A stretch of DNA of 64,000 bases from a virus (taxonomy: Duplodnaviria; Caudoviricetes), in IMG/VR virus record IMGVR_UViG_3300006153_000003; one strand, 5' to 3'. Numbering within the stretch: position 1 is the stretch's first letter; the number at the start of each line of letters is the position of its first letter. A program made the position numbers and the translations under genes. Positions 20,485-40,784 of this stretch are shown piece by piece. Below the pieces are notes generated by a model. It had not been told where the DNA came from, ran no database searches, and saw only the letters and a list, made by a program, of their open reading frames with translations.

Positions 20485-20652
20485 ATAAAAGACGAATTTC
20501 AACCGCATATGATTAGGAAGCGTTCCCCCAAGAATCTGACAGCGATTACGCTTCCTCATCCAAATTTACTGCCAGAGATTACATGGATATAACAATGAAC
20601 ACAAAGTCTAACATTCTTGACCGCATTTTAAATGTTATCCTCTGCATGTACT

Positions 20653-20681
20653 ATTTTATCATAGGATAAATATGTATGCAA
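20653..20681 (-). promoter_or_regulatory. Sigma-A-like promoter facing leftwards, antisense to the late operon
   Basis: TTGCAT-N17-TAAAAT with extended TG on the minus strand. Confidence 0.5.
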
Positions 20682-20727
20682 TTATTATAGAACGACTTAT
20701 TTCGACATATAACCACTACTCTTTTAT

Positions 20728-20744
20728 CTCATCTAAATGGCAAT
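20728..20744 (+). repeat. Shufflon crossover site CTCATCTAAATGGCAAT
   Basis: 17-mer identical at 20728(+), 21970(-), 30490(-), 32610(+). Confidence 0.9.
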
Positions 20745-21485
20745 ATGGATACATTAAAATGTGTCACAGCAGGAGGAATGGCTGCTGAAGGATGGTATCG
20801 AGTATATGAAGCTACTGTAGCAGTTTCAAGCATTTCTGGTTTTGGGTCAGGTGGCGATAATGGGATAATTTTTATTTCTACGAATTACAACTATTCTTCT
20901 CCGATGTCTTGCATATTATTATATACAGTGGAATATGGCGGCATTATCCATTGGAACTGCATATCTTGTTCCTCAAATAATGATGTTAGAATTATTGACA
21001 AAATTCGCTTTAGTCTTATTCCTGGATCTAAAGTATCTATTGATATACACTATCGCACATCAAATAATAACAACTTTGAAATCAAACTCATCTCCAATAG
21101 ATTTGGGAAAAAATTCCATCGATTGGAAAATGCGCAGCCTATCACAGATAATCCGTTAACAATCTCTGAGTATGATATTCCAGTGACCTCTGATCTGGAT
21201 GTTGAAAGAACCGTGTTTATAGAAGGCGGGATCTGGTATAAAACAAATAAGTTTGTTTTGATTTCTTTGAATAAAACCATTACAAAGGATACCGGAGGAT
21301 GGAATACGTTATCTTCAGCTATACCAACCGCAAAAGAACAATGCTTTGCACCATACTTGTCTGCGGATTTAGGAGTACAAGGAAATTTAATGGTTATTAA
21401 TAACTCATTACAAATAGATATTCCAAGCGCTGCGATTGGTAAGACATTCACCGTTAGAGGGCAGATAATGTATAGGTTAGCATAG
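20733..21485 (+). CDS. Silent tail-fibre C-terminal cassette E (remote shufflon pair)
   Basis: Begins in frame at CTAAATGGCAAT (L-N-G-N), no RBS; contains the TSDL junction. Confidence 0.8.
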   Translation, partial: LNGNMDTLKCVTAGGMAAEGWYRVYEATVAVSSISGFGSGGDNGIIFISTNYNYSSPMSCILLYTVEYGGIIHWNCISCSSNNDVRIIDKIRFSLIPGSKVSIDIHYRTSNNNNFEIKLISNRFGKKFHRLENAQPITDNPLTISEYDIPVTSDLDVERTVFIEGGIWYKTNKFVLISLNKTITKDTGGWNTLSSAIPTAKEQCFAPYLSADLGVQGNLMVINNSLQIDIPSAAIGKTFTVRGQIMYRLA

Positions 21486-21489
21486 GGCT

Positions 21490-21981
21490 TTATACAGGAT
21501 ACTTAAAGAAACGAACTCTAACACGTTGCGAAACAGTAGAATATATGTACCATACTCCAACATCCCGAAATACGTGATCCATAACGGAATTGTCATCAAA
21601 ATGTGACATAACAACCGGAATATAATTATCACTATTCGGAGCGTCTGATATACGAACAAAAGAACCGCCTGTCGTAACCACAATACAGTCAACATAGCTA
21701 AAATCAGAGTTTGTGATATAGATTCTCCATCCTGCCCAGTCACTACCATTATAGAAATTAAACGCCAATGGGGCACTATCAATACCAAATAAAGCTACAA
21801 CTATAGAAGTGGGTGATCGTTTCAAAATAACCGCACTTCCATATTTATAACTATTATTTGGCAAATCGTCGCTTAAGTAGCTGGAACCGGATAAAGAATA
21901 TGCGAAAAAACCAATAGGTAGCTTAGTTGCCTTAAGTAAAACACTTTCACTTATCATAACATTTCCGATATTGCCATTTAG
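21490..21981 (-). CDS. Silent tail-fibre C-terminal cassette F (remote shufflon pair)
   Basis: Starts at the LNG site, ends FFKYPV like the expressed fibre; clearly paralogous to cassette D. Confidence 0.85.
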   Translation of the reverse strand, partial: LNGNIGNVMISESVLLKATKLPIGFFAYSLSGSSYLSDDLPNNSYKYGSAVILKRSPTSIVVALFGIDSAPLAFNFYNGSDWAGWRIYITNSDFSYVDCIVVTTGGSFVRISDAPNSDNYIPVVMSHFDDNSVMDHVFRDVGVWYIYSTVSQRVRVRFFKYPV

Positions 21982-21986
21982 ATGAG
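21970..21986 (-). repeat. Shufflon crossover site (inverted)
   Basis: ATTGCCATTTAGATGAG is the reverse complement of the 20728 site. Confidence 0.9.
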
Positions 21987-22045
21987 AAGACAAACATTCT
22001 TTTTGCCATACTATAGCCTAAAAATTACGAAAGGAATTCAAACAA

Positions 22046-22222
22046 ATGAATACAACTAATGAAACTGTTACTATTTCGAATGAGCAGCAGTTAAATTCAA
22101 AAATAATTGATGTGATTATTGATATTTTAGCAAATAATAATTTATCTATTGCTGATGCAAAAAATATTCTATATGTAACATCAAAAAAATTATCTCAGCA
22201 AAAAGTTAAATCTTCTTTATAA
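22046..22222 (+). CDS. Small hypothetical protein (58 aa, not in the ORF track)
   Basis: GAAAGGA RBS, MNTTNETVTISNEQ...; 3' end overlaps the convergent gene. Confidence 0.5.
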   Translation: MNTTNETVTISNEQQLNSKIIDVIIDILANNNLSIADAKNILYVTSKKLSQQKVKSSL

Positions 22223-22496
22223 TTTGACTTAACTTCTGTGATATATTTTCTAGTTCACTTCTAATCTCCCATGATTCGGTTTGGTCGCTCCCTGTATTAG
22301 AATTAATATTTTTGAGTTCCTTTTCAATATTCTCCAAATAATCTTTCGGAGAATGTTCATCAAAACCATCTGATTGAATATTTCTTATTGCGTCCATAAT
22401 ATTACAATTTTCCGGATCCCCATCATCAAAACAATTATTATTAAAAATGCATTCACTTACACATTTCCCGTTAACAAAAGGGCAGAATGATTCCAT
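22206..22496 (-). CDS. Cys-rich hypothetical protein (moron)
   Basis: FCPF...C...C N-terminus, GAGGT RBS, AT-rich upstream region. Confidence 0.6.
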   Translation of the reverse strand: MESFCPFVNGKCVSECIFNNNCFDDGDPENCNIMDAIRNIQSDGFDEHSPKDYLENIEKELKNINSNTGSDQTESWEIRSELENISQKLSQIIKKI

Positions 22497-22677
22497 ATAA
22501 AAATACCTCTTTCAAAATTTTATAATATTATTATATAACAATACACCATATTTTCCATATAATTTTTATTTGCTAAGCGAATAAACAAGATTATTTCATG
22601 TGTAGGAGAAAAAGATTAACAATCACTCCTACTATTTTTATTATAAAATTCAAGAATAAAAGGAGTACATAAAATAT

Positions 22678-22935
22678 ATGAACAACACTAAAACAATTGA
22701 ATTGCTGCGAAAACGGAATACTCAACTACAAGAAGAACTTGACCGATTAAAGGAATTAAACACGAAACATTCCGACAAACCAGAAGATAAGAAAATTTCA
22801 GAATTAATCGCTGACCTAGAGAACATTCGCAAAGAATGGATGAATGTTTTGGAAGAATTAAATCATGATCGAGAAGAATACTGTAAATTATTAGAAGACT
22901 TACATACTATTCGAGAAACATTCAAAATGATATAA
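22678..22935 (+). CDS. Coiled-coil hypothetical protein
   Basis: AAGGAG RBS. Confidence 0.55.
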   Translation: MNNTKTIELLRKRNTQLQEELDRLKELNTKHSDKPEDKKISELIADLENIRKEWMNVLEELNHDREEYCKLLEDLHTIRETFKMI

Positions 22936-22959
22936 GAATAAAATTTCACAGGAAAAGAG

Positions 22960-23766
22960 GTGATAAATATGATTGCAATGGATTTTGAATATGATGGTGA
23001 ATATTTAAAAAATTACGGATTTACAATCTGTAGTATAAATGAAAATGGTTTCAATACCATCACTACGGATTCACAGGCAACTTTTAATAATGTAAAATTA
23101 ATGAATGGTAAACTATTTGAAATTACTACTTCTCAGTATGAAGATCGTTTGGAAATCAATTTCCAAATATGCAAGTATACTTCCGGCCATAAATTACATC
23201 CTATTTCCCATTACGAGGCAAGAGAATTAAAACGTTGGTTAAATAGACCTACCTTTAAGAGATTTAAGTTTATACAGCCTTACTGGGCAGATATTTATAT
23301 GGAAGGAAGCTTTAATGTAAAGAATATAGTATGTGGTGGAGAAATCTTTTTACTAGAACTAACTTTCATTAGTAATCATCCCTTTGCACTACACGAACCT
23401 ATCACCCATAGGATATTCACCTCTGCTACTAACGAATCTTATACTTTTTTTGACACATCAGATGAGATCGGATATATATACCCAGACATAAAAATCACTT
23501 GTCTGCAAAACGGGAAATTAGAAATAACCAATTCTAACGAAAATAGGATTACCGAAATAAAGAACTGCTCATCTGGTGAAATTATACAATTCACTCCAAA
23601 ATTATTGATGTCTACTTCTCTCCCGTCCCATAAGATTCAAAACGATTTCAATTATAAGTTTTTCAGAATATCTAACTCCTATAACAATCGTAAGAATACT
23701 TTAACTTTCTCACTTCCTGTAGAAGTAGAAATAACATATTGTCCTTATGTGAAGGTGGTGATGTAA
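22960..23766 (+). CDS. Distal tail protein (Dit)
   Basis: DFEYDG N-terminus, size, position before Tal. Confidence 0.7.
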   Translation: MINMIAMDFEYDGEYLKNYGFTICSINENGFNTITTDSQATFNNVKLMNGKLFEITTSQYEDRLEINFQICKYTSGHKLHPISHYEARELKRWLNRPTFKRFKFIQPYWADIYMEGSFNVKNIVCGGEIFLLELTFISNHPFALHEPITHRIFTSATNESYTFFDTSDEIGYIYPDIKITCLQNGKLEITNSNENRITEIKNCSSGEIIQFTPKLLMSTSLPSHKIQNDFNYKFFRISNSYNNRKNTLTFSLPVEVEITYCPYVKVVM

Positions 23767-23767
23767 T

Positions 23768-26700
23768 ATGGCAATAAAGATAAATTTTGATAGTGCTGGC
23801 AGACCAGAAATCCCCACATTCATACTTTCTGAGAAAAATGGAGATCATGTAGGTGTATTAAGTACAGTATCTCAAATTCACACTATAGGTAATTTAAATT
23901 CTTTTTCTGAATTTTCCTTTTCTATATATAAAGTATTAAACGAAGAAAAATGTGAATTCTGGGATGATATAGATAATTTCCATATCATGTATATTCCAGA
24001 ATGGGATAAATGGTTTGAAATTTATGTAGAAATAGATGAAAAAGATAGTTGTGTAAAAAATGTAACAGCTAAAACTATCCAAGAAGCTGAATTATCTCAA
24101 ATTTTACTGTTTGATATAGAAATAAATACAGAAAAAGATATAGAGAAGGATGATTATGTTCCTACTGTTCTATTTGAGCACAATAATGCAAAAGCTTCCT
24201 TATTACATAGATTGCTGGCTGATAAGGCACAGCACTATAAGATAATTCATGTTGATAGCACTATAGCCAAGAAACAACGGAGTTTTAGCTTTAACAATAT
24301 CTCTATTCATGATGCATTCCGTGAAATCTCTGAAGAACTTCACTGTTTATTTGTTTATGGTGAAGATAGTGGTTCAGAAGGAATCCCAAGAACAATTTCT
24401 GTATATGACCTAGAATCGAATTGTAATAAATGTGGCTACCGTGGAGAATATATGGGTATATGTCCAGAATGTGGTAGTCTGGATATTGATGAAGGGTACG
24501 GCGAAGACACTACTATCTTTGTATCAAATGAAAATTTGGCAGAAGGTGTTACCTTTTCAACAGACACGGATTCTGTAAAAAATTGTTTCCGTCTTGAAGC
24601 TGGTGATGATGATATGACAGCAGCAATTGTAAATATAAATCCTTCTGGTACACGATATATCTGGTATTTCCCAGATTATATGAAAAAACGTATGTCAAAA
24701 GGGCTTGTAGAGAAAATAGATTCTTTCAATACTCAATTAATCTACTATGAAAAGTCTTATCAGGAAAACTTGAATGCAACGATATTAAGCAACTATAATC
24801 AACTTATTGATAAATACCGGACTTATAAAAACACTTTGGAGAATATATCAGTCCCGATTACAGGATATCATAATTTGATGAAGATCTATTATGATATCAT
24901 AGACTTTAAAGGATATCTGCAAAATTCCCTGATGCCTAATATAGAAATATCAGAAACGAGTGTCACACAGCAAGCAGGTTTATTGACGGCAGGCAATCTC
25001 TCTCCTGTTTCTGTTGAGAACACATCCTATATTTCCCTGGCAACCGCTAATAGCGTGATTTTGTCATATGCCAAGGTTTTTATAGACACAGCAAAATACA
25101 AGGTAAAAGTAAAATCATCTAGTTTGACAGGAACTACTTGGACAGGTAATTTTACAGTTGTTAGCTATACAGACGACGAAGATACTGCTGACAGTCGTAC
25201 TATCACCATACAGATCAATGATAATTATGAGAATTTTGTAAAGCAAAAAATAGATAAGATTCTTACGAAGGAAAATGAAGATATCAGTATTATCGGATTG
25301 TTCAAGAAAACTGATGTAAATTTCAAAAATGATTTGAAGAAGTATAGCTTATCTTGTCTTCAGGTCATACATGATGCTTGTCAGGCATGTTTAGACATAT
25401 TGATTGAGCAAGGTATCTCAAACATGAAATCTGATTTATATGAAAAAATATATAAACCGTACAGAGATAAGCTAACCTATATCGAACAGGAAATTAAAGT
25501 GCGTGAATCAGAGATTGCCATCGTTGACGCAATTTATGATAAAGATGGTGATGTCGTAGCAGATGGCATGAAATCACTTATACAGAAAAAACGCAGAGAA
25601 ATTTCTAAAATTCTTGATTTCAAAAAGTATCTTGGAGATTACTGGAATGAATTTTGTTCCTTTAGACGTGAGGATTTGTGGAAGAATACTAACTATATTT
25701 CAGAAGGTTTGGACAATGCACAGCTATTCAAACAGGCAAAAGAATTCCTGGAATCAGCAAAAAAGGATCTCATTAAATCAGCAACACAGCAGCACAGCAT
25801 CTCTACTACCCTTAAGAATCTTTTAGTAATGGAAGATTTCAAACCTCTTGTCGAACATTTTGCAGTAGGAAACTGGTTAAGAATCGGTGTTGATGATAAA
25901 GTTTACAAACTTCGCTTGATTTCTTATGAGATTGATTATGAAAATCTTGATACTATTACTGTTGAATTCTCTGATGTCGTAGACGCATTTGGATTAATGA
26001 AAGATATTGAAGATATACTGAATCAGAGCCAATCCATTTCCAACTCCTATGATTCTGTAAAACACCAGGCTGAAGAGGGAGACAAGGCAAATGGTAGGTT
26101 GAAAGGATGGGTTGGTAAAGGGCTTGAAGCCACTACTATCAAAATCATGAATAACGCCGATGACCAAGATTATGTTTTTGACCGTCATGGAATGGTTTTC
26201 AGAAAAAAGGATCCTGATACGGATACCTACTCTCCTGTCCAAGTGAAAATCATAAATTCCACTATTGCTATGACCACTGATAATTGGATGACTTCTAAGG
26301 TCGCTGTCGGAGAATATATTTACCTGGATCCACGAGACTGGAAATATAAAACCGGATATGGGGTAATTGCTGATACTTTGATTGGTAATCTCATTCTTGG
26401 TGAAGAGGTTGGTATTTATAATGATAAAGGAACCATGACCTTCAAAGAAGATGGTCTGACGGTCACGAATGGCATTAATACTTTCCAGGTAAATCCAAAT
26501 TCCAAGACACTTTTGACTCTCTCCCATAATGATAGGAGGATTCTATACGTGGATGAGACTGGCGAATTGCATATTGAAGGTGACGGTTCTGCTCTTGATA
26601 TCACAGCTAATGGTACAGTGGAAGGCATGAATACTAAGATAACTCAGAATGCAAAAGCTATTACATTAGAGGCCAATCGTGCATCAGAAGCAGAAGGAAA

Positions 26701-27286
26701 ATTGTCAGCTTCTATTGAAGTAAATGCAAACGCTATTACTCAAAGGGTACAAAAAGATGAATTTGGTTCATACATGGAGCAGAATTATGAGAGCTTTTTG
26801 ATTGGATTTAATAAAAGTAGCAAGGTAATTCAGATAACCGATGGAGAAATCGCTATCTATGATAATTCCAAAACCAATAGTAAAAAGCGTGCAAGTTTCG
26901 ATGAACGTGGCAATAGTTTTTGGCGAGATGGTTATCGTATTGGTACAATAGGTACGAATAAATTAAAAGACTATCCATCAAAAAAAGGACTAGATTTTGA
27001 CCTGGAAACAGATGGTGCTTATATGACGTGGGCCTATAGAAATAAAACCGATGATGATGTTTATACCATGAAATGGACATATGCTGCTGAAAACTATGGT
27101 GATTATGCTGCTGATATGTTACATGCGGGGTGTGATATAGATATGCATAATTTCAATATATATAACGCAAAAATCTCAGAAGGATCTGTTAAATTCAATC
27201 TTCCAGGTATTACAGATATATTTGAAGCTGGCGGTATACGATGGAATTTCCAGAAAGGAAGATTAGTTGATGCAGCAGTCGTATAG
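23768..27286 (+). CDS. Baseplate hub/tail spike protein (Tal-like, prophage tail)
   Basis: Follows Dit; LRLISYEIDYENL..VEFS and YGVIADTLIGNLILGE motifs of SPbeta-like tail proteins. Confidence 0.75.
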   Translation: MAIKINFDSAGRPEIPTFILSEKNGDHVGVLSTVSQIHTIGNLNSFSEFSFSIYKVLNEEKCEFWDDIDNFHIMYIPEWDKWFEIYVEIDEKDSCVKNVTAKTIQEAELSQILLFDIEINTEKDIEKDDYVPTVLFEHNNAKASLLHRLLADKAQHYKIIHVDSTIAKKQRSFSFNNISIHDAFREISEELHCLFVYGEDSGSEGIPRTISVYDLESNCNKCGYRGEYMGICPECGSLDIDEGYGEDTTIFVSNENLAEGVTFSTDTDSVKNCFRLEAGDDDMTAAIVNINPSGTRYIWYFPDYMKKRMSKGLVEKIDSFNTQLIYYEKSYQENLNATILSNYNQLIDKYRTYKNTLENISVPITGYHNLMKIYYDIIDFKGYLQNSLMPNIEISETSVTQQAGLLTAGNLSPVSVENTSYISLATANSVILSYAKVFIDTAKYKVKVKSSSLTGTTWTGNFTVVSYTDDEDTADSRTITIQINDNYENFVKQKIDKILTKENEDISIIGLFKKTDVNFKNDLKKYSLSCLQVIHDACQACLDILIEQGISNMKSDLYEKIYKPYRDKLTYIEQEIKVRESEIAIVDAIYDKDGDVVADGMKSLIQKKRREISKILDFKKYLGDYWNEFCSFRREDLWKNTNYISEGLDNAQLFKQAKEFLESAKKDLIKSATQQHSISTTLKNLLVMEDFKPLVEHFAVGNWLRIGVDDKVYKLRLISYEIDYENLDTITVEFSDVVDAFGLMKDIEDILNQSQSISNSYDSVKHQAEEGDKANGRLKGWVGKGLEATTIKIMNNADDQDYVFDRHGMVFRKKDPDTDTYSPVQVKIINSTIAMTTDNWMTSKVAVGEYIYLDPRDWKYKTGYGVIADTLIGNLILGEEVGIYNDKGTMTFKEDGLTVTNGINTFQVNPNSKTLLTLSHNDRRILYVDETGELHIEGDGSALDITANGTVEGMNTKITQNAKAITLEANRASEAEGKLSASIEVNANAITQRVQKDEFGSYMEQNYESFLIGFNKSSKVIQITDGEIAIYDNSKTNSKKRASFDERGNSFWRDGYRIGTIGTNKLKDYPSKKGLDFDLETDGAYMTWAYRNKTDDDVYTMKWTYAAENYGDYAADMLHAGCDIDMHNFNIYNAKISEGSVKFNLPGITDIFEAGGIRWNFQKGRLVDAAVV

Positions 27287-27309
27287 ATAAACTGGAAAGG
27301 GGAAATATC

Positions 27310-27498
27310 ATGGCCAATATAAATAAAAACGAAGGCAGAGCTTATATTATGCCAAAAGGTACTCCTGTAAATATAGAAGAATCACCTTCTTTAAATGGAC
27401 AAGTACCCACCTATTCATTAGAGATGAATTTATTAAAAGAAGTCAATCAAAAATTAGATTTATTACTCACATCACTAAAAATATCAATAAAGGAGTAA
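27310..27498 (+). CDS. Hypothetical tail-region protein
   Basis: RBS, operon position. Confidence 0.5.
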   Translation: MANINKNEGRAYIMPKGTPVNIEESPSLNGQVPTYSLEMNLLKEVNQKLDLLLTSLKISIKE

Positions 27499-27506
27499 TC
27501 TTTAAT

Positions 27507-27731
27507 ATGGAAAAACCATTACTTTTAGTACGCGAAGAGTTTATGAGCGATCTGGCAGATTTGATTAATCAATCACGTCTGCCTTTTGTTATTATAGAGC
27601 CTATATTAGAGAAATTTTTAGAAAATGCCAGAGGTGCTATCAAACAGCAATTATCGGATGAAAAATTTCGATACGAAAAATATTTAAAGGAAAAGGAAAA
27701 AGAAGAATCAGGAAAAAATTCTGATGAGTAA
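27507..27731 (+). CDS. Hypothetical tail-region protein
   Basis: KPL...REEF...L..LIN.S.LP motif common in tail modules. Confidence 0.55.
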   Translation: MEKPLLLVREEFMSDLADLINQSRLPFVIIEPILEKFLENARGAIKQQLSDEKFRYEKYLKEKEKEESGKNSDE

Positions 27732-27803
27732 AATATATAAAGCTCTTAGTTTCGTCTAAGGGCTTATTTTTATGGATTCTCAAGCAATTATGCATTTGCT
27801 TGT

Positions 27804-28844
27804 GTGTCCAGGAAAGGAGTCAGGATGATACAGCAAAATGGATATCTAGCAGTACAACATATACGGGTTCGTATCAATCATAATATCATCAGCACTGTTA
27901 ATCTGGTTCAAGGTGACACAGCCCGTGAATTTCATTTTTTCTTTGACGACTACATCATCCCAGAAGGTGCAGAATTTCGTATTTATATTCGTAAACCGTC
28001 TGGTTGTGAAATATATAGTCATTGCTACTTACGAAATGATGAAATCGTTGTGCAACCCACTTTACAAATGGTTGCCGAAAAAGGACAGAACTTAGGTCAG
28101 ATACAAATTATAAAGGATGACAAATTGCTTAACACTTTCGTCTTCTATCTTGCTATCGAAGAAAATCTTATCTTCTCCTCCTCTATTACTTCTTCAAACG
28201 AATTCGATCTAATCAATGATTTCATAGATACTGCAAGGCGGTTAATCCCAGAAATAGAAAAAACACTTGCAGATGCCCAGGAGCAAGAAGCTAAACGAGA
28301 GGATTCAGAGAATGATAGAAAAAATAATGAACTGGTCAGAATTCTTAATGAAGATGAACGAGTAAATAATGAAAATACACGTATAGCTAATGAAATTATA
28401 CGAAATGAAAACGAAGAAGTCCGGAAAGCAAATGAGATTGAACGTCAAAAAAATACAGGCATTGCCATAAAAGAAGCCAATACTGCCAGAGATAAGGCAA
28501 ACGAAGCTACTAAGAATGCAAATGACACTGCTCAAGACATAAAAGATAAATTAGCTAATGGTGAATTTAGTGCAAGTATCCACGTAGGTGATGTAACAAC
28601 TGGAGATGCTAGCAGCGAAGTCGAAATCACAAATACTGGCACGGCTAAAGATGCTGTATTTAATTTTAAAATCCCCAAAGGAGATACAGGTGAAAGTGGT
28701 ATCACTACTCCCATCAGCGGTTTTCTCTCTTTATCGGTAGATGATTTAGGCAATCTATATGTACATTACAATGATGAACCCGAAAATCAAGAATTTGAAT
28801 ATGATCCGGATACCGGAAGTTTATATTATATCACACCAGATTAA
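27804..28844 (+). CDS. BppU-family upper baseplate protein
   Basis: VQGDTARE...YIRKPSG BppU_N motif; NE..R heptad repeats; FKIPKGDTG. Confidence 0.75.
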   Translation: MSRKGVRMIQQNGYLAVQHIRVRINHNIISTVNLVQGDTAREFHFFFDDYIIPEGAEFRIYIRKPSGCEIYSHCYLRNDEIVVQPTLQMVAEKGQNLGQIQIIKDDKLLNTFVFYLAIEENLIFSSSITSSNEFDLINDFIDTARRLIPEIEKTLADAQEQEAKREDSENDRKNNELVRILNEDERVNNENTRIANEIIRNENEEVRKANEIERQKNTGIAIKEANTARDKANEATKNANDTAQDIKDKLANGEFSASIHVGDVTTGDASSEVEITNTGTAKDAVFNFKIPKGDTGESGITTPISGFLSLSVDDLGNLYVHYNDEPENQEFEYDPDTGSLYYITPD

Positions 28845-28867
28845 TAAGAAAGGAAGGATGATAATAT

Positions 28868-29920
28868 ATGGGAAAAGTATTAATTGGAAATATTAAGGGA
28901 CCTCAAGGACCAACCGGCGTAAGAGGCGGTATGTGGTTACAGGGAACTGCAGTTACAGGTACAAGTACAGAAGAAACTTCATTTCCTGATTCAAATATCA
29001 CTTACGCAATTATCGGAGACGCTTATTTTAACGTAGAAACGTGTAATGTATATGCATGTACTAAAGCCGGAAATCCAACTGATGCAAAGTGGGTTTATAC
29101 TGGGAATATTAAAGGTGTAAAAGGTGACACTGGTAGCACACAATCAATTCAGAATGCGGTTCTTGAGTTTAATGAAGCTCTTACTCGCGAAAATATTGAA
29201 TCAACTGATACTGTTGAGACAATCTTTGGAAAGGTTAAGAAATATTTTACAGATTTAGGCTCTGCTGCTTTTATGAATGTTGTAAATAATGTCACTCAAT
29301 CAGAAGCAGGACAAGCGGTACTTGATGCTGCTGTCGGAAAATACCTTGAAGAGAAAAAGTTTGATATAAGTAAAATTATAGCAAATCGAAACATCACAGA
29401 ACCCGGATTTGTTATGGATGGCAAAACCGTTGCCGACGCTCTTACTGAGCTAAATGGCAAATTCGCAGTAACAATTATAGAGGGGGACTTGTTTGAATAT
29501 GCGGAATTGTTACCTGTCGGATTCTATACGTTTGGAGCAAATGCAAATACGACTAATGTTCCGGACTCCCCATCTGCTGGATGTATTATAAAACGCACAT
29601 CCTCACATATTTCCATTATTCTTGTGGCATATGGAACTGGAAAATATTATTGCGTTGAATATGGTGGTAATTGGCGAAAGTGGAACAAATTAGTACTAGA
29701 CTCTGATTTAGAAGTAATTTCATTTTCCCAAGAGATTATAGCCGATACAGCTACAGCATTAAGTTCAGCTCCACAAAGTAAACAATATATACCTGTCGTA
29801 ACTACAGTATCAGGAACACCGAGATATGCGGGAAGTTTTTGCTTTACATCCGGCTCATGGTATTTTACAGCTAATAATACACAAAGGTATGGATTTGCTT
29901 TTTATAAGTATCCTGTATAA
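28868..29920 (+). CDS. Tail fibre/receptor-binding protein: constant N-terminus plus currently expressed cassette A (29450-29920)
   Basis: Collagen-like GNIKGPQG start; crossover CTAAATGGCAA at 29450-29460; ends FYKYPV. Confidence 0.85.
   Translation: MGKVLIGNIKGPQGPTGVRGGMWLQGTAVTGTSTEETSFPDSNITYAIIGDAYFNVETCNVYACTKAGNPTDAKWVYTGNIKGVKGDTGSTQSIQNAVLEFNEALTRENIESTDTVETIFGKVKKYFTDLGSAAFMNVVNNVTQSEAGQAVLDAAVGKYLEEKKFDISKIIANRNITEPGFVMDGKTVADALTELNGKFAVTIIEGDLFEYAELLPVGFYTFGANANTTNVPDSPSAGCIIKRTSSHISIILVAYGTGKYYCVEYGGNWRKWNKLVLDSDLEVISFSQEIIADTATALSSAPQSKQYIPVVTTVSGTPRYAGSFCFTSGSWYFTANNTQRYGFAFYKYPV
29441..29460 (+). repeat. Shufflon crossover site inside the expressed fibre gene
   Basis: CTTACTGAGCTAAATGGCAA versus CTTACTCATCTAAATGGCAA at 32606. 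Confidence 0.88.
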
Positions 29921-30015
29921 GAGGAGATCCCATGATTTCAGCGAAAGGAAATAGAAAACCGAATTCACAGCATCTTTATAATATTGTTACAAGATAATGA
30001 GTTGATTTTCGTAAT

Positions 30016-30501
30016 TTACGCCGGATACTTGTAAAAACGAATAGTCATATTTTGTTCAGTAGGTGATATCACAAGCCACGAATTTGCGCCCCGATTTCCA
30101 TAAACTGAAACGCCTGTATAATCACTACTTACTCTTAATACAACAGGGATATAATTCATGCCTGTTATGTTGGGGACATAGTTATTGCTACCACGGACAG
30201 TATCCATTGTGACATCCGTATAGCCTAAATCAGAGGTTAGAACATATGGAATCCATGTAACTTCTTGTTCTCGATTAATCATTGAACCTGAGTACAACCG
30301 AGAAGGAATATCTAATAGTCCAGTATACACAATTGCCAAGAAATATGAATCTCCAGCAAAATATCCAGGTCTAGAATATCCGAGGGTTCTAATAATAACA
30401 CCGTAATTCCCTGGAAAATTTCCGCCAGAATTTTTCCATTCGCCTATACTCCATATTTTGAACGAATTTCCCCTAGATATAGTATTTATATTGCCATTTA
30501 G
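30016..30501 (-). CDS. Silent tail-fibre cassette B
   Basis: Open frame from the LNG site (LNGNINTISRG...) to FYKYPA; TSDLG junction. Confidence 0.88.
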   Translation of the reverse strand, partial: LNGNINTISRGNSFKIWSIGEWKNSGGNFPGNYGVIIRTLGYSRPGYFAGDSYFLAIVYTGLLDIPSRLYSGSMINREQEVTWIPYVLTSDLGYTDVTMDTVRGSNNYVPNITGMNYIPVVLRVSSDYTGVSVYGNRGANSWLVISPTEQNMTIRFYKYPA

Positions 30502-30506
30502 ATGAG
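30490..30506 (-). repeat. Shufflon crossover site (inverted)
   Basis: ATTGCCATTTAGATGAG. Confidence 0.9.
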
Positions 30507-30607
30507 AAGTTAAACTTTTCGAAAGACACTTGTAATTTAGATTTTTATGTCATATAATATCGGTAAAAATCATTTTGATAAATAAAGCGTATAGAGGAGG
30601 AATATTA

Positions 30608-31267
30608 ATGATTTCTACAAAAGATATGGCATTTTATTATCCTAATGGTGAAGAAATCAAAAAAGAAATATTTTTAGATTTCTATAGTAAATGCTATTAT
30701 ATGAATAATAATGTTTTTGTCGAAGATGAGATTGAGAAATTATTAGATAAAGGTAAAAATAATTTGACAGAAGAGGATTTGTTTAATATTTTAGCTTGGA
30801 AGATTGGGAAGATTAATCACAAAAAATCCAATCCAGATGATGGTATAATATATTATAAGGATTGGAACAAAGAACTTTTAGAAGCTAAAATATATAAAGA
30901 TTCATTGGACAAAGAGTTTTTTTCTTGCATTAAAAAAAGTTTATTAGAAATTAATGGTGAAGAATTGATCGATTATATAAACAAATTGAAAGATATAAAT
31001 CATCTAGGACCAGTGTATATTGTCACATTGAGATATTTTTCAACAAAAGGGAAATATCCAATTTATGATAGATTTGCATATAAAGCAATACAAGCCATTT
31101 TAAATAATCATATTCCTTTTGATTTAATTCCTGAAAAAAATACATTAAATAAAAACATTAATGATATATATAATGAATATTTAAAAAAATTACAAAATAT
31201 TTTTCCAGAGAATTTTAGCGAACGAAAAGTTGACCAAGCATTGTGGGTTTATGGACATTTATTTTAA
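30608..31267 (+). CDS. Moron inside the shufflon; possible HhH/OGG-fold DNA glycosylase-like protein
   Basis: GAGGAGG RBS; ILAWK ... HLGPVY..TL..F...KYPIYDRFA..A ... RKVDQALW pattern; very AT-rich. Confidence 0.5.
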   Translation: MISTKDMAFYYPNGEEIKKEIFLDFYSKCYYMNNNVFVEDEIEKLLDKGKNNLTEEDLFNILAWKIGKINHKKSNPDDGIIYYKDWNKELLEAKIYKDSLDKEFFSCIKKSLLEINGEELIDYINKLKDINHLGPVYIVTLRYFSTKGKYPIYDRFAYKAIQAILNNHIPFDLIPEKNTLNKNINDIYNEYLKKLQNIFPENFSERKVDQALWVYGHLF

Positions 31268-31285
31268 ACACTTTGATTAATAATA

Positions 31286-31313
31286 TTGTCACTCAACTAA
31301 GTATCTAATATCT
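31286..31313 (-). repeat. Degenerate shufflon site; 25/28 direct repeat of 33470-33497
   Basis: TTGTCACTCAACTAAGTATCTAATATCT versus TTGCCATTTAACTAAGTATCTAATATCT. Confidence 0.7.
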
Positions 31314-31344
31314 ATATTATAATTTGATTTTTAATTCTTAAAGT

Positions 31345-31380
31345 AATAAAAGACATCAGTACCTATCTGGTGTCTTTTAT
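31345..31380. terminator. Bidirectional terminator between the moron and the recombinase
   Basis: ATAAAAGACATCAG/CTGGTGTCTTTTAT stem. Confidence 0.65.
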
Positions 31381-31419
31381 CAATTATATGTAATTATTGT
31401 AGTTGATTATTTTGTGCAT

Positions 31420-32412
31420 TTATGCACTCAAATATTTTTTATGATGATACTGTACACTTGCTTGGTCAACAGTACAGTAAATCATAGTAGTTTCGAGTTT
31501 TGCGTGTCCTAAGAAGCGAGAAACTTCTTGTAAGGGCATTCCTCTATTCAATGCGTTAGTTGCTGCTGTCCGACGAAAACGATGTGGATGAGCGTCTTCA
31601 ACACCAGCGCGTTTGCCAATGCGTCGAATAATATCTTCTGCACCAGCTTTTGTTAATCGTTTGTTTGGTTTCCTTAATCCTACAAATAAAGCAGGGTTAT
31701 CATCATCCCGGCTATCTAAATATTCTTTCATGTACATACATGATCTGTCGTTCAAGTAAACAATTCTTTCTTTTCCTCCTTTCCCATACACGAGTAAGTC
31801 TCTTGTCATGAAATTCAAATCTTTTCTATCAAGACTTAAAAATTCACTTACTCGAACTGCTGTACTATACAAGAATTCTAACATTGCCTTATCTCTGAGA
31901 TTAGTGCAGTTTCGAGATAGTAATTCCCTTTCTTCGTCTGTGTAAGGTTTCTTTAGAATCTGTTCCACCTTGATATCTGATACGAGAACCATAGGATTTT
32001 TACGGATTCGATCACGGTCACGTAACCAGGTGAAAAAGCTATTAAAGACTGCTCGTACATTTCTTAAGGTTACATTTGCGACTTTCCGTGTTGCTTTGTA
32101 GGTTCTCATGTATCTGGATATATCACCATCTGTTATCATATCTACAGGTTTGTTGATGTATGATAACAGACGATGTAATTCATACTGGTATCGTATTGTT
32201 GTTTCTCTGGATCTGCCTTCAAGCATCTTTGCAATAATGAAATCTTCCAAGTCATCCATCCAACTGTCGTCTATAACCATTAGTTCCGTATTTTTGACTA
32301 AATCACAATCAGCAAAAGAGATTTGCATGATTTCTTTTAATTCCCCTAATTGTTTTTCATCTAAAATGTCTTGTGCTTTTCTCAATACTTCCATAATTTT
32401 TTGTTCAACCAT
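31420..32412 (-). CDS. Tyrosine recombinase (XerD-like), shufflon invertase
   Basis: Catalytic R (TAVRVSE), K (GKGGKER), HxxR (HRFR), H (LGH), Y (TTMIY); embedded among the cassettes. Confidence 0.92.
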   Translation of the reverse strand: MVEQKIMEVLRKAQDILDEKQLGELKEIMQISFADCDLVKNTELMVIDDSWMDDLEDFIIAKMLEGRSRETTIRYQYELHRLLSYINKPVDMITDGDISRYMRTYKATRKVANVTLRNVRAVFNSFFTWLRDRDRIRKNPMVLVSDIKVEQILKKPYTDEERELLSRNCTNLRDKAMLEFLYSTAVRVSEFLSLDRKDLNFMTRDLLVYGKGGKERIVYLNDRSCMYMKEYLDSRDDDNPALFVGLRKPNKRLTKAGAEDIIRRIGKRAGVEDAHPHRFRRTAATNALNRGMPLQEVSRFLGHAKLETTMIYCTVDQASVQYHHKKYLSA

Positions 32413-32609
32413 ATTTCACACACTCCTTTATACTCTTTTGGTTTCAATATGGTTCTTCTGTATTTATTGGAAAAACATACCAAAAATATGTTCGGTATAA
32501 AGGAGAGTGAGATAAGTATAGAAAATTTCTTGCTTTCCATCATGTAAAAATTTGTTTCGAAATGTTATATTGTAATCGCGCAGGTAGGAAAATCAATGGA
32601 AATTGCTTA

Positions 32610-32626
32610 CTCATCTAAATGGCAAT
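32610..32626 (+). repeat. Shufflon crossover site
   Basis: CTCATCTAAATGGCAAT. Confidence 0.9.
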
Positions 32627-32944
32627 TTTATAATGATATCGGGAACTGGTGGTAGTTTAGAAGCTATAGAGGGAGTAAGTGAAATATATTTTGATGATTA
32701 TTGTAGATTTTGGCATAACAATTTTATAGGATGTGTAAGTGTTACTTTCACTAATTTTACAGAAATACCAGCTTGGCGTGGATTTATACGATTACCCTTT
32801 AAAACATATCGAGAGTGTGTGACACATCTATACGATGCACCAGACATTCAAGTGTATGCAGGTACAGGAACTGCAGTGAATACTATGTCACGCCCCATAC
32901 CTGTGGGGAAACATCATTTTGACATGGTAGTTTCACTCATCTAA
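32615..32944 (+). CDS. Silent tail-fibre cassette C
   Basis: In frame from CTAAATGGCAAT; unrelated single-domain tip without the SDL junction. Confidence 0.8.
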   Translation, partial: LNGNFIMISGTGGSLEAIEGVSEIYFDDYCRFWHNNFIGCVSVTFTNFTEIPAWRGFIRLPFKTYRECVTHLYDAPDIQVYAGTGTAVNTMSRPIPVGKHHFDMVVSLI

Positions 32945-32976
32945 CATAGCATTCCTGTAAATTGAATTTCGCGACT

Positions 32977-33480
32977 TTACACTGGATACTTGTAAAATCG
33001 AACGCCTACGCTTTGTTCAACTGTAGAATATATTCTCCATTTGTCACTTTCCCAAAAAATATGTTCTAGGCATTCATTAGTCTTATTATGATCGAAAACA
33101 ACAGGTATGTAATTAAATGCATTTGGTGCATTGAGGATTTCAACAGAATGATCCGCAACTGTATTGAAAAAAATGTCGACATATCCTAAATCAGAGGTTC
33201 GCACATAAAACTGCCAATCTCCCCAATTAGTACCATCATAGAATTTAGTAGCTAACGGTGTAGAACCGATTCCGGTTAAAATCACTTTTATATTTGTCTG
33301 GAGTCTTTTTAAAATAATAGCGTTTCCATAAGCATAGCTAAAGTTTGGTAAATCTTCACCCTTATATCCGGCTCCACTTAGTATATACATAAAAAGCCCT
33401 TGCGCTGCAATCTCTACTGCTTTATTCAAAACACTTGTTGATAAAACGGATTCGTTTGTGCTTCCTAACTTGCCATTTAA
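32977..33480 (-). CDS. Silent tail-fibre cassette D
   Basis: In-frame TAG immediately precedes TTA AAT GGC AAG; ends FYKYPV. Confidence 0.88.
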   Translation of the reverse strand, partial: LNGKLGSTNESVLSTSVLNKAVEIAAQGLFMYILSGAGYKGEDLPNFSYAYGNAIILKRLQTNIKVILTGIGSTPLATKFYDGTNWGDWQFYVRTSDLGYVDIFFNTVADHSVEILNAPNAFNYIPVVFDHNKTNECLEHIFWESDKWRIYSTVEQSVGVRFYKYPV

Positions 33481-33487
33481 CTAAGTA
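33470..33487 (-). repeat. Shufflon crossover site (inverted, terminal)
   Basis: TTGCCATTTAACTAAGTA. Confidence 0.85.
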
Positions 33488-33647
33488 TCTAATATCTTTC
33501 TTCAATTTACACAATTTCACAGAAAATAGTACAAATGAAAGAGCAATTTCATCTGTATTATTTTCACTCATTTCAGAGTAAAACAAGGTTTTCTAGCCTT
33601 GTTTTTTTTATACCCAAAATTCAAAAAAAGAAAGGAAGAAAAATTTT

Positions 33648-35878: not shown

Positions 35879-37108
35879 TCATATAATTACTTGTTTTGAT
35901 AGTGTATCAACCATATTTTTCTTAGAATTTTGATTAACATGAACATATATTCTTGCCGTAGTATCATAATTTGCATGACCTAGCCACTCTTGGATTTCTT
36001 TCATCTGATACCCTAAGTTTAACAACAAAGAAGCACAACTATGTCTCAACCCATGAAATGTTATGGGTGGAAGTTCATTTTTTTTAATCACTTTTGAAAA
36101 AGTATGAGTAATATAAGTCGGTGTAATCAAATTACCATTTTCGTGAACAAATAAATATTCTAAATTATCAGTGTTATACGCATTCCCGTAAATTTTCATA
36201 TAATACTTTTTATCTTCAATTATCTTTTTCAAATATTCTTCTAATTCTGAAAATAACGGGAAACTTCTTATTGAAGATTCGTTTTTCAATTGATTTTTCT
36301 TTAAGTGCACAGTTCTATATTTGTTTTCAGTATCGTCTAACATAAACCCGGTCACTACGCTATGTTGTATATAAAGAATATGATTAATAAAATCAACATC
36401 GCTTATTTTAATTCCAACCACTTCTTCTCTTCTTAACCCATAATAACTTGCTAATAACACAGGTATTAAAATTTTACTATCTTCAGATTTCAGAATATTA
36501 ATTAATTCTTGAATTTGATCTATATTATACCACTGTGCTTTTTTTGTATCACATTTAGGCTTGACAACATTATCAATAGCTTCTTTCCTGATGTATCCTT
36601 CTTTTATAGCTTTTGATATTATCGACATTAAAGTTGCATAGTGTCGTTGCAGTGACGTTCCTGATAATTTTTTTCTTCCATCATATCCATTCTTTTTTTC
36701 ATCAAAATATCGATTAATGTCATTAGAATTTAGATTACAAATTTTTATCTTTTGTTTATAAAAATATGGATACAGATGCACTCGAACTGTTAATTCATCT
36801 GAGGCAAAAGTTATATCATCAACTCTACTCTTTTGAGTCTCAAGCCATTGCTTCATATAATCACAAAACAATAAAGACTCTTTATTATTCAAAAATTCTA
36901 TATTTGTATGTTTAGAAGAATTGTATTTAGTCAATTCTTCTTCCAACATTATCTCGGCCTTCTTTTTATTTCCCCTTATATCTAATTTTGTATTTATCCA
37001 TTTAAGTTTTCTTTTGTTTTCCTTATCATATAAATTTAAGACGATATACCATTTCCCATTTTTCTTTTGAACACTTCCTGTAATCTCTTTTTTATTTTGG
37101 GTTTTCAC
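35879..37108 (-). CDS. int: Phage integrase (tyrosine recombinase)
   Basis: N-terminal arm-binding domain, GLRREE, HGLRH, LGH...TTARIY. Confidence 0.93.
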   Translation of the reverse strand: MKTQNKKEITGSVQKKNGKWYIVLNLYDKENKRKLKWINTKLDIRGNKKKAEIMLEEELTKYNSSKHTNIEFLNNKESLLFCDYMKQWLETQKSRVDDITFASDELTVRVHLYPYFYKQKIKICNLNSNDINRYFDEKKNGYDGRKKLSGTSLQRHYATLMSIISKAIKEGYIRKEAIDNVVKPKCDTKKAQWYNIDQIQELINILKSEDSKILIPVLLASYYGLRREEVVGIKISDVDFINHILYIQHSVVTGFMLDDTENKYRTVHLKKNQLKNESSIRSFPLFSELEEYLKKIIEDKKYYMKIYGNAYNTDNLEYLFVHENGNLITPTYITHTFSKVIKKNELPPITFHGLRHSCASLLLNLGYQMKEIQEWLGHANYDTTARIYVHVNQNSKKNMVDTLSKQVII

Positions 37109-39052: not shown

Positions 39053-40784
39053 CAATGTTAACAACCTAACTCAAGCAACTACAACATATAGTGTTTCTTT
39101 TAATTGGCACGGGATTCCCTGTGCCTTTCTTTATTTATAACCACTAATACGATTAAAATATTGCACAAAATTCGCCCATAAAAACCAGCATATTTACTAT
39201 TGACATAAGCTCCAAAAAATGCGGCGCAGCCCTTGTTTATATTACTTTTTTAAGGGGGCTGCATCGTATGAATTTAATTCAAATCTTAGTCGATATTATC
39301 TGTAACACATTACTTGATCCACATGTCCTTGAACGGGCCAGAAACAGAAAAGGGGCTTTTACACGCAATTGCGGGAAACTTCCCTATTGGACATTGATCA
39401 AACTGTTATTAAGAAATTCCAAGAAAACTATTTCTTCATCACTGGATGAATTCTTTACCGAATTGCGGCATATATCAGGAATTCCAATCTCTGATACTGT
39501 GAAATGTTCCCAACAGGCTTTCAGCAAGGCCCGTTCCGGCATTGATCACTCTATTTTCAAAGAATGCTTCGAACGTGTACTTGACTTCCTTTGCAGCAGG
39601 GATTCCCTGGATTTCCATTCACGTTTCATGGGTGTATGGGGACGGCAGATCATTGCTGTTGACGGCTCTAAAATACCTCTTCCTAACCGTAAGACTCTTC
39701 TTGATAAATACGGCAGCATAGGGAGAGGCCAAAACTCTCCCACTGCCATTGCCAGTGTTGCTTTTGATGTACTGAATCACCGCATCCTTGATGCACAGCT
39801 CGAACCCATGAGCGTCGGTGAACGTACCCTTGCCATAAGGCATATGCAAAATATAAAAAGCAAAGCACGGACGAATCTATTATACACCATATTTGTCTTC
39901 GATAGGGGATATGCTTCAAAAAATTTATTTTCTTTTATCGAAGACACCTTACATGCCGGATATCTCTTCCGGTTAAGGACTAAATTTAACACGGATATTG
40001 ATGCACTCCCTGTACCGGCGGATCGAAATGGAATCAGTGACTATATCTTTTTCCTTGATGGCAGGAAAGTACGCATCCTTAAATTTTACCTCCCAAGTGG
40101 GACGGTGGAAACGCTGATCACAAATGATTTTGACCTTGCCAAAGAACTGTTCCGCCAGTGTTACTTCCTTAGATGGCCGGTGGAGGAGAATTATAAGCTT
40201 GTCAAAGAAAAGATCGGGCTCACTAATTTCCGGGGCTATTCCGAGAACTCCGTTCTCCAGGAATTCTGGATATCGGTATTGCTTGCAAACCTGGCTCTTG
40301 CCATAAAGCGGGAGACGGACGGCATTGTTGACAGCACCATAAACCAGAAAGGGAATCAGAACAAATATATGACAAACATGAATGAGCTTGTCGGATACCT
40401 GAGCCGTCACATAGGAGAATATATGGATGCTGATACAGACACAGAAAAGTATGGCATCATCCGCTGTATATTTGATTTTGCCGTATCTCACCGGGTGCGT
40501 GACAAAAAGGGCAGCGGGGAATCAAATCTACGTACAACTCCAAGAAAAGTCAAACATCATTACAATAACAAGACTACACACTAATACCATTTAAGAAAGG
40601 TGGTGGTGCCAGTTTCTTTATATTCTACAATACAAACGCCATATCTAAAAAAACAGCTGATAGCAACCAAGGGGAAAGTCTGCCCTTTTTTCAGTGTATT
40701 TTAATCATTTCTATCATCTGCTATTATTGGTTTAATAGCTTAATCCTATTGTGATATCATGCCACTACTAAGTTGTTAACATTG
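39053..40784 (+). mobile_element. IS4-family insertion sequence, 1732 bp, with 10-bp target duplication ATATTGAAAC
   Basis: TIRs CAATGTTAACAAC at both ends; TSD at 39043-39052 and 40785-40794; higher GC than flanks. Confidence 0.92.
39268..40584 (+). CDS. IS4-family DDE transposase
   Basis: AVDGS, FDRGY, Y..RW.VEE.YK..K (YREK) motifs. Confidence 0.93.
   Translation: MNLIQILVDIICNTLLDPHVLERARNRKGAFTRNCGKLPYWTLIKLLLRNSKKTISSSLDEFFTELRHISGIPISDTVKCSQQAFSKARSGIDHSIFKECFERVLDFLCSRDSLDFHSRFMGVWGRQIIAVDGSKIPLPNRKTLLDKYGSIGRGQNSPTAIASVAFDVLNHRILDAQLEPMSVGERTLAIRHMQNIKSKARTNLLYTIFVFDRGYASKNLFSFIEDTLHAGYLFRLRTKFNTDIDALPVPADRNGISDYIFFLDGRKVRILKFYLPSGTVETLITNDFDLAKELFRQCYFLRWPVEENYKLVKEKIGLTNFRGYSENSVLQEFWISVLLANLALAIKRETDGIVDSTINQKGNQNKYMTNMNELVGYLSRHIGEYMDADTDTEKYGIIRCIFDFAVSHRVRDKKGSGESNLRTTPRKVKHHYNNKTTH

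Follow-up and report, generated by a model that had tools for sequence, protein, structure and literature searches.

The R64 shufflon (Rci/sfx, pilV) undergoes multiple inversion by a tyrosine recombinase, at asymmetric sites with a conserved arm and core and a variable arm, and joins a constant N-terminus to alternative C-termini that set partner specificity. The C-termini of phage tail fibres are switched by inversion in the Min (p15B), Cin (P1) and Gin (Mu) systems, which use serine invertases with an enhancer and Fis and a single site class; Min has six sites and may string more than one segment behind its constant part, and if so it is the closest precedent for a fibre assembled from several segments. 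In T-even gp37/gp38, short conserved boundary motifs serve as crossover points at which host-range determinants reassort between phages. Here we report on a tail-fibre shufflon in the IMG/VR virus record IMGVR_UViG_3300006153_000003 (Caudoviricetes), of which a stretch of 64,000 nucleotides (the window) was analysed, and in which five of the six exchangeable cassettes carry a second, in-frame motif between their two domains. The locus is unlike the T-even case, which depends on homologous recombination of co-infecting genomes and has no dedicated invertase, silent cassettes or in-place inversion. It is also unlike R64, a plasmid pilus adhesin system with a single site class and a recombinase of a different clade: the target here is not pilV/sfx but a virion fibre near DUF6558 baseplate genes and an endolysin, and the site is unrelated.

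The outer tier of this locus is a member of the class typified by the Rin shufflon of Bifidobacterium prophages (Mavrich et al. 2018, PMC6109161), and rearrangement at its tyrosine-recombinase sites is seen in the sequence data. In both, a phage-encoded tyrosine invertase without an arm-binding domain lies beside the constant 5' part of a receptor-binding-protein gene, and several promoterless 3' cassettes are each headed by a short asymmetric 11-bp site at which inversions occur. The two differ in the site (TTCCCTAACCC in Rin, CTAAATGGCAA in the window), in host phylum and in fibre family, and in the window one cassette pair stands 7.5 kb away across baseplate genes. Rin as described has one site class and exchanges whole cassettes, whereas in the window a second in-frame junction splits them. 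In the literature that could be searched, no tail fibre has been described with a second in-frame junction at which the halves of the tip are reassorted.

The closest verified analogue of this putative inner tier is the type I restriction hsdS shufflon. At the pneumococcal cod/SpnIII hsdS locus the invertase PsrA acts on three in-frame repeat pairs, of which IR1 is 15 bp long, while IR2 and IR3 need IR1-like sequence (PMC7096588). Common to that locus and ours are a single adjacent tyrosine invertase, at least two classes of in-frame inverted repeat at domain boundaries, and domains that are re-paired combinatorially; the window contains both the second inverted in-frame repeat class at a domain boundary and its exchange products. 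In hsdS the secondary repeats work through their likeness to the primary one and a recombinase-independent background exists (PMC7096588), and the other repeats, at 85 and 298 bp, are longer than those of the window. The hsdS target is the specificity subunit of a bacterial DNA methylase, whereas that of the window is a virion protein, and the hsdS rearrangements have been shown experimentally while ours are read from assemblies.

Exchange of half-cassettes at the inner motif

The expressed tail-fibre gene, identified from its open reading frame (ORF) and translation, encodes 350 amino acids on the plus strand (28868..29920). Its constant part extends to 29449 and is followed by cassette A, which consists of a proximal domain (29459-29698), a junction (29699-29710) and a distal domain (29711-29917). 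The silent cassettes B (30016..30501, minus strand) and D (32977..33480, minus) also have two domains, and cassette C (32615..32944, plus) has a single domain and lacks the inner motif. Of the remote pair of silent cassettes, E (20733..21485, plus) has a large proximal domain and a distal domain of the GWNTLS..TVRG type, while F (21490..21981, minus) is a two-domain paralogue of D. An earlier note on this DNA had pointed to an in-frame motif at the same boundary in five cassettes, and all five copies are present on the coding strand as (A/G)(A/C)C-TCT-GAT, between the proximal and the distal domain. They read GAC TCT GAT TTA G in A (29699..29711, plus), A ACC TCT GAT TTA GG in B (30224..30238, minus), AAC TCT GAT TTT A in F (21699..21711, minus) and ACC TCT GAT CTG G in E (21186..21198, plus); the 15-mer of B, AACCTCTGATTTAGG, recurs identically in D (33185..33199, minus; repeat family D2), again as the note had it. 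The copies in E and F thus differ from those in A, B and D in the last two to three bases. The heptamer CTCTGAT occurs 16 times in the whole window against 10 +/- 3 expected and so is not rare in itself; five of these copies, however, fall within about 3 kb of cassette DNA, and all five share coding strand, reading frame and structural position.

Homology among cassettes A, B, D and F extends from one end to the other, while E was said to differ on both sides of the motif, and its proximal and distal domains do both differ from those of the other four. The T-S-D-L of E is nevertheless a true domain boundary, because E-like distal domains are joined to other proximal domains behind SD(L/F) or EDL in homologues (P0017, P0023-26, P0060 and L083). 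The position given to the E motif by a MAFFT alignment of the six cassettes was wrong and was corrected from these homologues. An AlphaFold2 model places S279-D280-L281 in a short turn that leads from the last strand of one beta domain to the first strand of the next. The predicted local distance difference test score (pLDDT) of the model is 67-94 over residues 200-350, the last 150, and its N-terminal 190 residues are unreliable. The Foldseek matches of the model to R-pyocin and phage K fibre tips are weak (TM score of about 0.2), owing to these unreliable first 190 residues.

Evidence for rearrangement was drawn from assembled public contigs (L numbers), including contigs aligned over 19.5-34.7 kb of the window and others fetched through protein searches and then aligned to it. 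Gaps in the depth of runs X3, X4 and X11, over 21-24.5 kb and 29.6-30.1 kb, were left out of the evidence. The contigs' blocks of 97-100% identity to the window end only at an outer site or inside the 11-mer CTCTGATTTAG. Contigs from about 10 samples and three assembly pipelines (Logan, ENA and JGI) contain the proximal ends of A (..CTAGA), of B (..CTAAC) and of two modules absent from the window, X (..TTAA[T/C]) and Y (..CAAAC), each then running into CTCTGATTTAG, after which comes either the A-distal (AAGTAATTTC..) or the B-distal (GCTATACGG..) sequence. Writing proximal before distal, the pairing A|A is found in the window, L012 and L056, and B|B in the window and L056; the crossed pairing A|B occurs in L037 and B|A in L036, L038, L092 and L093; X|A occurs in L011 and L037, X|B in L038, L039 and L092, and Y|B in L012. 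In the A|B, B|A and X|A chimeras the breakpoint is the motif of A. In L083 an F-proximal domain, 97.5% identical to that of the window, matches as far as 21705, inside the motif, and continues into an E-like distal domain. The re-pairings of window modules seen are thus confined to A and B (plus X and Y) and to F-proximal with an E-like distal. The B|A chimera and the F|E' chimera, with its E-like distal, encode full-length expressed fibres (P0148, P0170 and L092).

The A and B distal domains form an invertible unit of 535 bp (29701..30235), in which A-distal, a 95-bp spacer and B-distal lie tail to tail between inverted 11-mers. The unit has the window orientation in L012 and L056. It is flipped as one contiguous block of 547-563 nt, at 98-99% identity, in L037, L038 and L092, where it sits between different proximal domains, and also in run X3, in which a joint connects 29701 with 30236 on opposite strands and 11 letters are common to both sides; L093 contains the flipped junction and ends inside the block. 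Since the non-coding spacer of 95 bp turns over together with the two distal domains, in a single block, we regard the event as an in-place inversion and not a replacement. At the 3' cassette motif TTTTA-AAGTATCC, which is about as well conserved as the inner motif, no exchange was seen in the same roughly 10 contigs. Another joint in run X3 (29460<->30239) was considered as a possible fibre without a proximal domain and rejected, since a match from 30239 is expected of an unaligned X-proximal domain (..TTAACC) before B-distal, as in L038.

Across a wider sample of 81 cassettes, clustered into modules at 90% amino-acid identity, 34 proximal and 30 distal clusters are connected by 44 pairings. 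Eight of the proximal modules are paired with at least two distal ones and nine of the distal modules with at least two proximal ones, and five complete 2x2 "four-gamete" squares contain all four combinations, so that the proximal and distal halves are incongruent. Exchange has thus happened repeatedly in nature, and exactly inside the motif. The earlier note's proposal that a second crossover lets the halves exchange independently is borne out by these natural recombinants, by their breakpoints in CTCTGATTTAG and by the flipped unit; the breakpoints at CTCTGAT that it suggested looking for do occur in assembled contigs besides those at the outer sites. We hold with high confidence that the inner motif is a real and recurrent recombination junction.

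Modules A, B and X are also found, at 98-99% identity, in a different siphovirus-type prophage (L092) with its own tape measure, a Prophage_tail protein and a 457-amino-acid fibre. The invertase gene of L092-type phages is only about 70-77% identical in DNA and their virion genes are unrelated; near-identical modules beside diverged invertases indicate that half-cassettes are shared between phage lineages. In the JGI contig L012 (5680-5830), an A-proximal domain and the motif are followed by 23 nt of a foreign distal domain (GYVNCEV type), a second copy of 29650-29711 and A-distal; this structure is either an assembly path through a mixed population or a real small duplication at the junction.

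Codon usage at the hinge was compared among 12 distal modules with <95% nucleotide identity to each other. The hinge Leu is TTA in 10/10 (background 0.40, P=1e-4), the Ser is TCT in 9/11 (background 0.31, P=7e-4) and the Asp is GAT in 11/11, values to be read with the caveats that the lineages are not independent and that the motif would be made uniform by exchange at it. At a conserved control Ser, TCT occurs five times, TCA three times, and TCC and TCG once each, and in most of the conserved Pro, Ile, Arg, Lys and His columns the codons are scrambled. The counts show a motif held constant at synonymous positions, which is the constraint the earlier note had suggested looking for. Its statement that Ser-Asp is always TCT GAT stands for the five window cassettes and fails among relatives: L084 has AGT for the hinge Ser in both cassettes, and two other modules have TCA. 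Of the three outcomes that the note named as refuting its proposal, namely breakpoints at the outer site alone, varied SDL codons and congruence of the two domains, none was obtained. In the C-terminal FYKYPV, the first Tyr (alignment column 78) is the rare TAC in seven of nine diverged modules (background 0.18), a second island of synonymous conservation.

The invertase and rival explanations

The presumed shufflon invertase is a 330-amino-acid Xer-like tyrosine recombinase without an arm-binding domain (31420..32412, minus; PF00589, 1e-39), with a SAM-like N-domain and resemblance to XerA, XerC and XerD; the R..HxxR..H..Y residues can be read in its translation. Enzymes 59-68% identical to it lie beside cassettes in related loci, and its IMG/VR relatives at 64% identity accompany arrays like this one, whose site is TTAAATGGCAAA. 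The window has two recombinase genes, for the shufflon enzyme and for a 409-amino-acid integrase-like protein (35882..37108). In a scan of 48 window ORFs, the 25 best-scoring of 61 Pfam families (E values down to 6e-13) include Phage_integrase as the only recombinase family and no serine recombinase.

We propose a model of two tiers. At the outer tier, which is shown, this invertase recombines six asymmetric sites, so that the constant shaft can be joined to any whole tip. At the inner tier, a second in-frame site, (A/C)C-TCT-GAT-TTA-G, encoding x-S-D-L at the hinge between proximal and distal domains, would serve the same enzyme, which may read it as a degenerate outer site one codon shorter. 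The cassettes lie tail to tail and the inner sites of a pair are therefore inverted; recombination between them would flip both distal domains as a unit and re-pair the halves. Modules also pass between unrelated phages that carry related invertases. The model draws some support from the alignment of the sites. The earlier note had seen an overlap with the primary site in CTAAAT on the reverse complement, which proves weak and lacks supporting flanks; a forward alignment with one codon removed fits better, setting the outer TCT-CAT-CTA-[AAT]-GGC-AAT against the inner TCT-GAT-TTA-GGC-TAT. An outer-site weight matrix from which this codon (A-W-T) has been taken out puts the inner sites of B, D and F, in the register expected, at the 99.89-99.98th percentile among the positions of the whole window, while the ungapped matrix does not single out the inner sites (61st-99th percentile). 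On this evidence, a two-tier shufflon with the invertase acting at both site classes seems to us evenly poised between true and false, and we take much the same view of the narrower claim that the shufflon invertase performs the inner exchange. The fuller picture, in which one invertase, two in-frame site classes and nested inversions are found in a single genome and half-cassettes circulate among unrelated gut Lachnospiraceae phages, we put forward tentatively, as falling just short of an even balance.

Several observations weigh against a role for the invertase at the inner site. The copies in A and E fit the codon-removed matrix poorly (98.9th and 95.9th percentile), and the inner site has no counterpart of the invariant TGGCAA core of the outer site. 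The positions of TCTGAT, identical between inner partners, vary between outer partners, which rules out a common register for the use of the two sites. In L084 both cassettes have AGTGATTTAGG, which breaks the best-conserved C of the putative left arm, and its two copies are identical over 17 nt, a pattern that exchange by homology would require as well. Apart from the motif the modules are unrelated, so any recombination that uses identity could occur only there. The IMG/VR relatives of the recombinase at 64% identity serve single-domain cassettes only, the Tyr TAC of FYKYPV is as biased as the junction codons, and the evidence for exchange consists of assembled contigs and not of both inner states within one clone.

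These points lend weight to an account in which the invertase acts at the outer sites only, and the S-D-L hinge is a conserved linker at which short-homology recombination has taken place in the course of evolution. Its 11-19 nt of identity would be recombined occasionally, within a genome or between co-resident phages, by host pathways that do not need RecA or by a single-strand-annealing recombinase of a phage, and selection for new host ranges would fix the products. The modules held in common at 98-99% by phages with diverged invertases and unrelated virion genes show that general exchange between phages occurs, and the absence of a TGGCAA core and the L084 17-mer, different from the motif and identical between its two cassettes, also speak for this account. 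Some pneumococcal hsdS inversions are independent of PsrA (PMC7096588), and relaxed recombination by phage Rad52-like enzymes has been reported (PMC3945230). Against this stand the 11 perfect bases, which are below the usual RecA minimum, and the at least three independent reciprocal events needed for nine pairings of modules that differ by 0-3%. The clean in-place inversion that includes the spacer, the lack of exchange at the equally similar 3' motif, and a synonymous constraint that suggests selection on the DNA word itself are also poorly accounted for. We consider the short-homology account a serious possibility, if a somewhat doubtful one.

That the hinge is conserved at the protein level only, with the commonest codons and with mosaics that reflect ancient domain architectures, is very improbable. 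The hinge codons TCT, GAT and TTA are also the ones most used for Ser, Asp and Leu (30%, 80% and 40%), A, B, D and F show homology from end to end, and other distal families at the same hinge have only partial motifs (P0008, P0015, P0059 and P0079), all of which fits such a reading. It is already contradicted by the near-identical reciprocal chimeras, which match window modules at 97-100% on both sides of the junction and so reflect recent events; the five four-gamete squares and the scrambled codons of the control Ser and most other conserved residues tell against it as well. Chimeras formed at a short repeat during assembly or library preparation could produce the odd L012 structure, and several contigs are short and thinly covered; this explanation we judge to be extremely improbable. 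The shared word is only 11-19 nt long, shorter than the k-mers that assemblers use (k=31 for Logan), and assemblies of different studies, from Logan, ENA and JGI, contain these junctions repeatedly; for these reasons we do not regard the contigs as chimeric. The junctions are present, too, in contigs of 8-17 kb with full-length fibres.

The usual reading of tail-fibre shufflons equates N cassettes with N host ranges, whereas here the cassettes are split at a dedicated junction. Five two-domain cassettes could yield up to about 25 tips, and the population pool of at least 34 proximal and at least 30 distal modules could yield far more. If one invertase does use both site classes, receptor specificities would multiply roughly quadratically. 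The split cassettes change what host-range prediction from gut phage genomes has to consider, and the locus is a compact natural case of combinatorial protein assembly by nested inversion outside restriction-modification. Whether two different sites can be read by one simple Xer-like invertase is a question that can be tested cleanly in this system. There is also a warning for metagenomics, in that a fibre gene assembled from a mixed population captures just one isomer out of many.

Outer sites and cassette architecture

Six exact outer sites, (C/T)TAAATGGCAA, alternate in orientation and each heads one cassette: A (CTAAATGGCAA, 29450..29460, plus), B (30491..30501, minus), C (32615..32625, plus), D (TTAAATGGCAA, 33470..33480, minus) and, in the remote pair, E (20733..20743, plus) and F (21971..21981, minus). 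From 24 unique 21-nt sequences the consensus is CTNANYTAAWTGGCAA, after which the sequence is cassette-specific, a layout of conserved left arm and core with a variable right arm. Joints between outer sites were found at 21970<->29460 (runs X4 and X11), 30490<->32627 (run X2), 32609->20728 (run X11) and 20743->32657 (run X3). In a second phage lineage (L036-L038, L048, L083, L085 and L092) the silent outer sites read TTAATTGGCAA (..L-I-G..) and the expressed site ..E-L-N-G..; the difference goes together with the left flank, so the outer crossover falls within TGGCAA or behind it. The flank before the outer sites has many variants, of which the "SDL" of some sites (..RRDSDLIGN..) is one, probably by coincidence. 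A degenerate seventh outer site (31286..31318, minus; repeat family D4, 85% identical to 33470-33502) has TTGTCACTCAAC in place of TTGCCATTTAAC and the same 21-nt flank as site D. It sits between the recombinase gene and an ORF of 230 amino acids inside the shufflon (30575..31267, plus), which has no Pfam or NCBIfam match and is kept beside the recombinase in L040-L047.

Each of the six cassettes begins with L-N-G-(K/N), and from this Leu-Asn-Gly its frame stays open as far as a stop codon; the cassettes are promoterless and are arranged tail to tail, three on each strand. Among 116 homologues of the fibre the N-terminal part is held in common, and many different C-termini follow LNG. One homologue, P0134, has a cassette with almost no proximal domain (LNGNLNNALTHP-TSDL-distal) and may be a deletion product or an ancestral one-domain form of the YKYP tip family.

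The E/F pair lies 7.5 kb upstream of the fibre gene, across baseplate genes, and yet recombines with the main array. In L049 and L050 it is inverted in place, and the genes next to it (Tad2-like and tape-measure-like) have no window counterpart; at the equivalent place L040-L043 have another fibre-type cassette gene of 277-325 amino acids with an S74 domain. The remote pair is entered, in relatives, by the frame of a small ORF that has a ribosome-binding site of its own (MHNHYRTTYYDLLRHRITTLLSH-LNG..., 186 amino acids; L049:10001-10561). The window has one copy fewer of the 10-nt tandem repeat ACGACTTATT at 20650-20745, and for want of that copy the start of this ORF is out of frame there.

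Carrier phage, searches and neighbouring genes

The carrier of the shufflon is a large Lachnospiraceae phage of the mouse gut. The stretch was found in about 20 mouse-gut sequencing runs from 13 studies, its G+C content is low (about 32%), it encodes the large-phage genes DNA polymerase III alpha, NrdD, ligase and ThyX, and relatives of the recombinase reside in Lachnospiraceae genomes such as those of Mediterraneibacter, Faecalimonas and Dorea. In the phage GenBank collection the lysin alone gave a match to the window. In IMG/VR a fibre scan matched relatives in the N-terminal part only, and a degenerate FYKYPV pattern had no match. A distal-domain profile found no match in the 401 Lachnospiraceae GTDB genomes and 5 handles that were searched. 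Of 29 pattern hits in JGI metagenomes, L056, L073 and L074 were genuine and the rest were discarded.

Baseplate-type genes lie 5' of the fibre gene (DUF6558, then a protein of 1172 amino acids), and the silent cassettes, the Xer-like recombinase and an amidase endolysin lie 3' of it. Just past the endolysin is the gene of the integrase-like tyrosine recombinase (35882-37108), followed by that of a DDE transposase (39268-40581); in L040-L044 an IS110-family transposase lies beside the shufflon.

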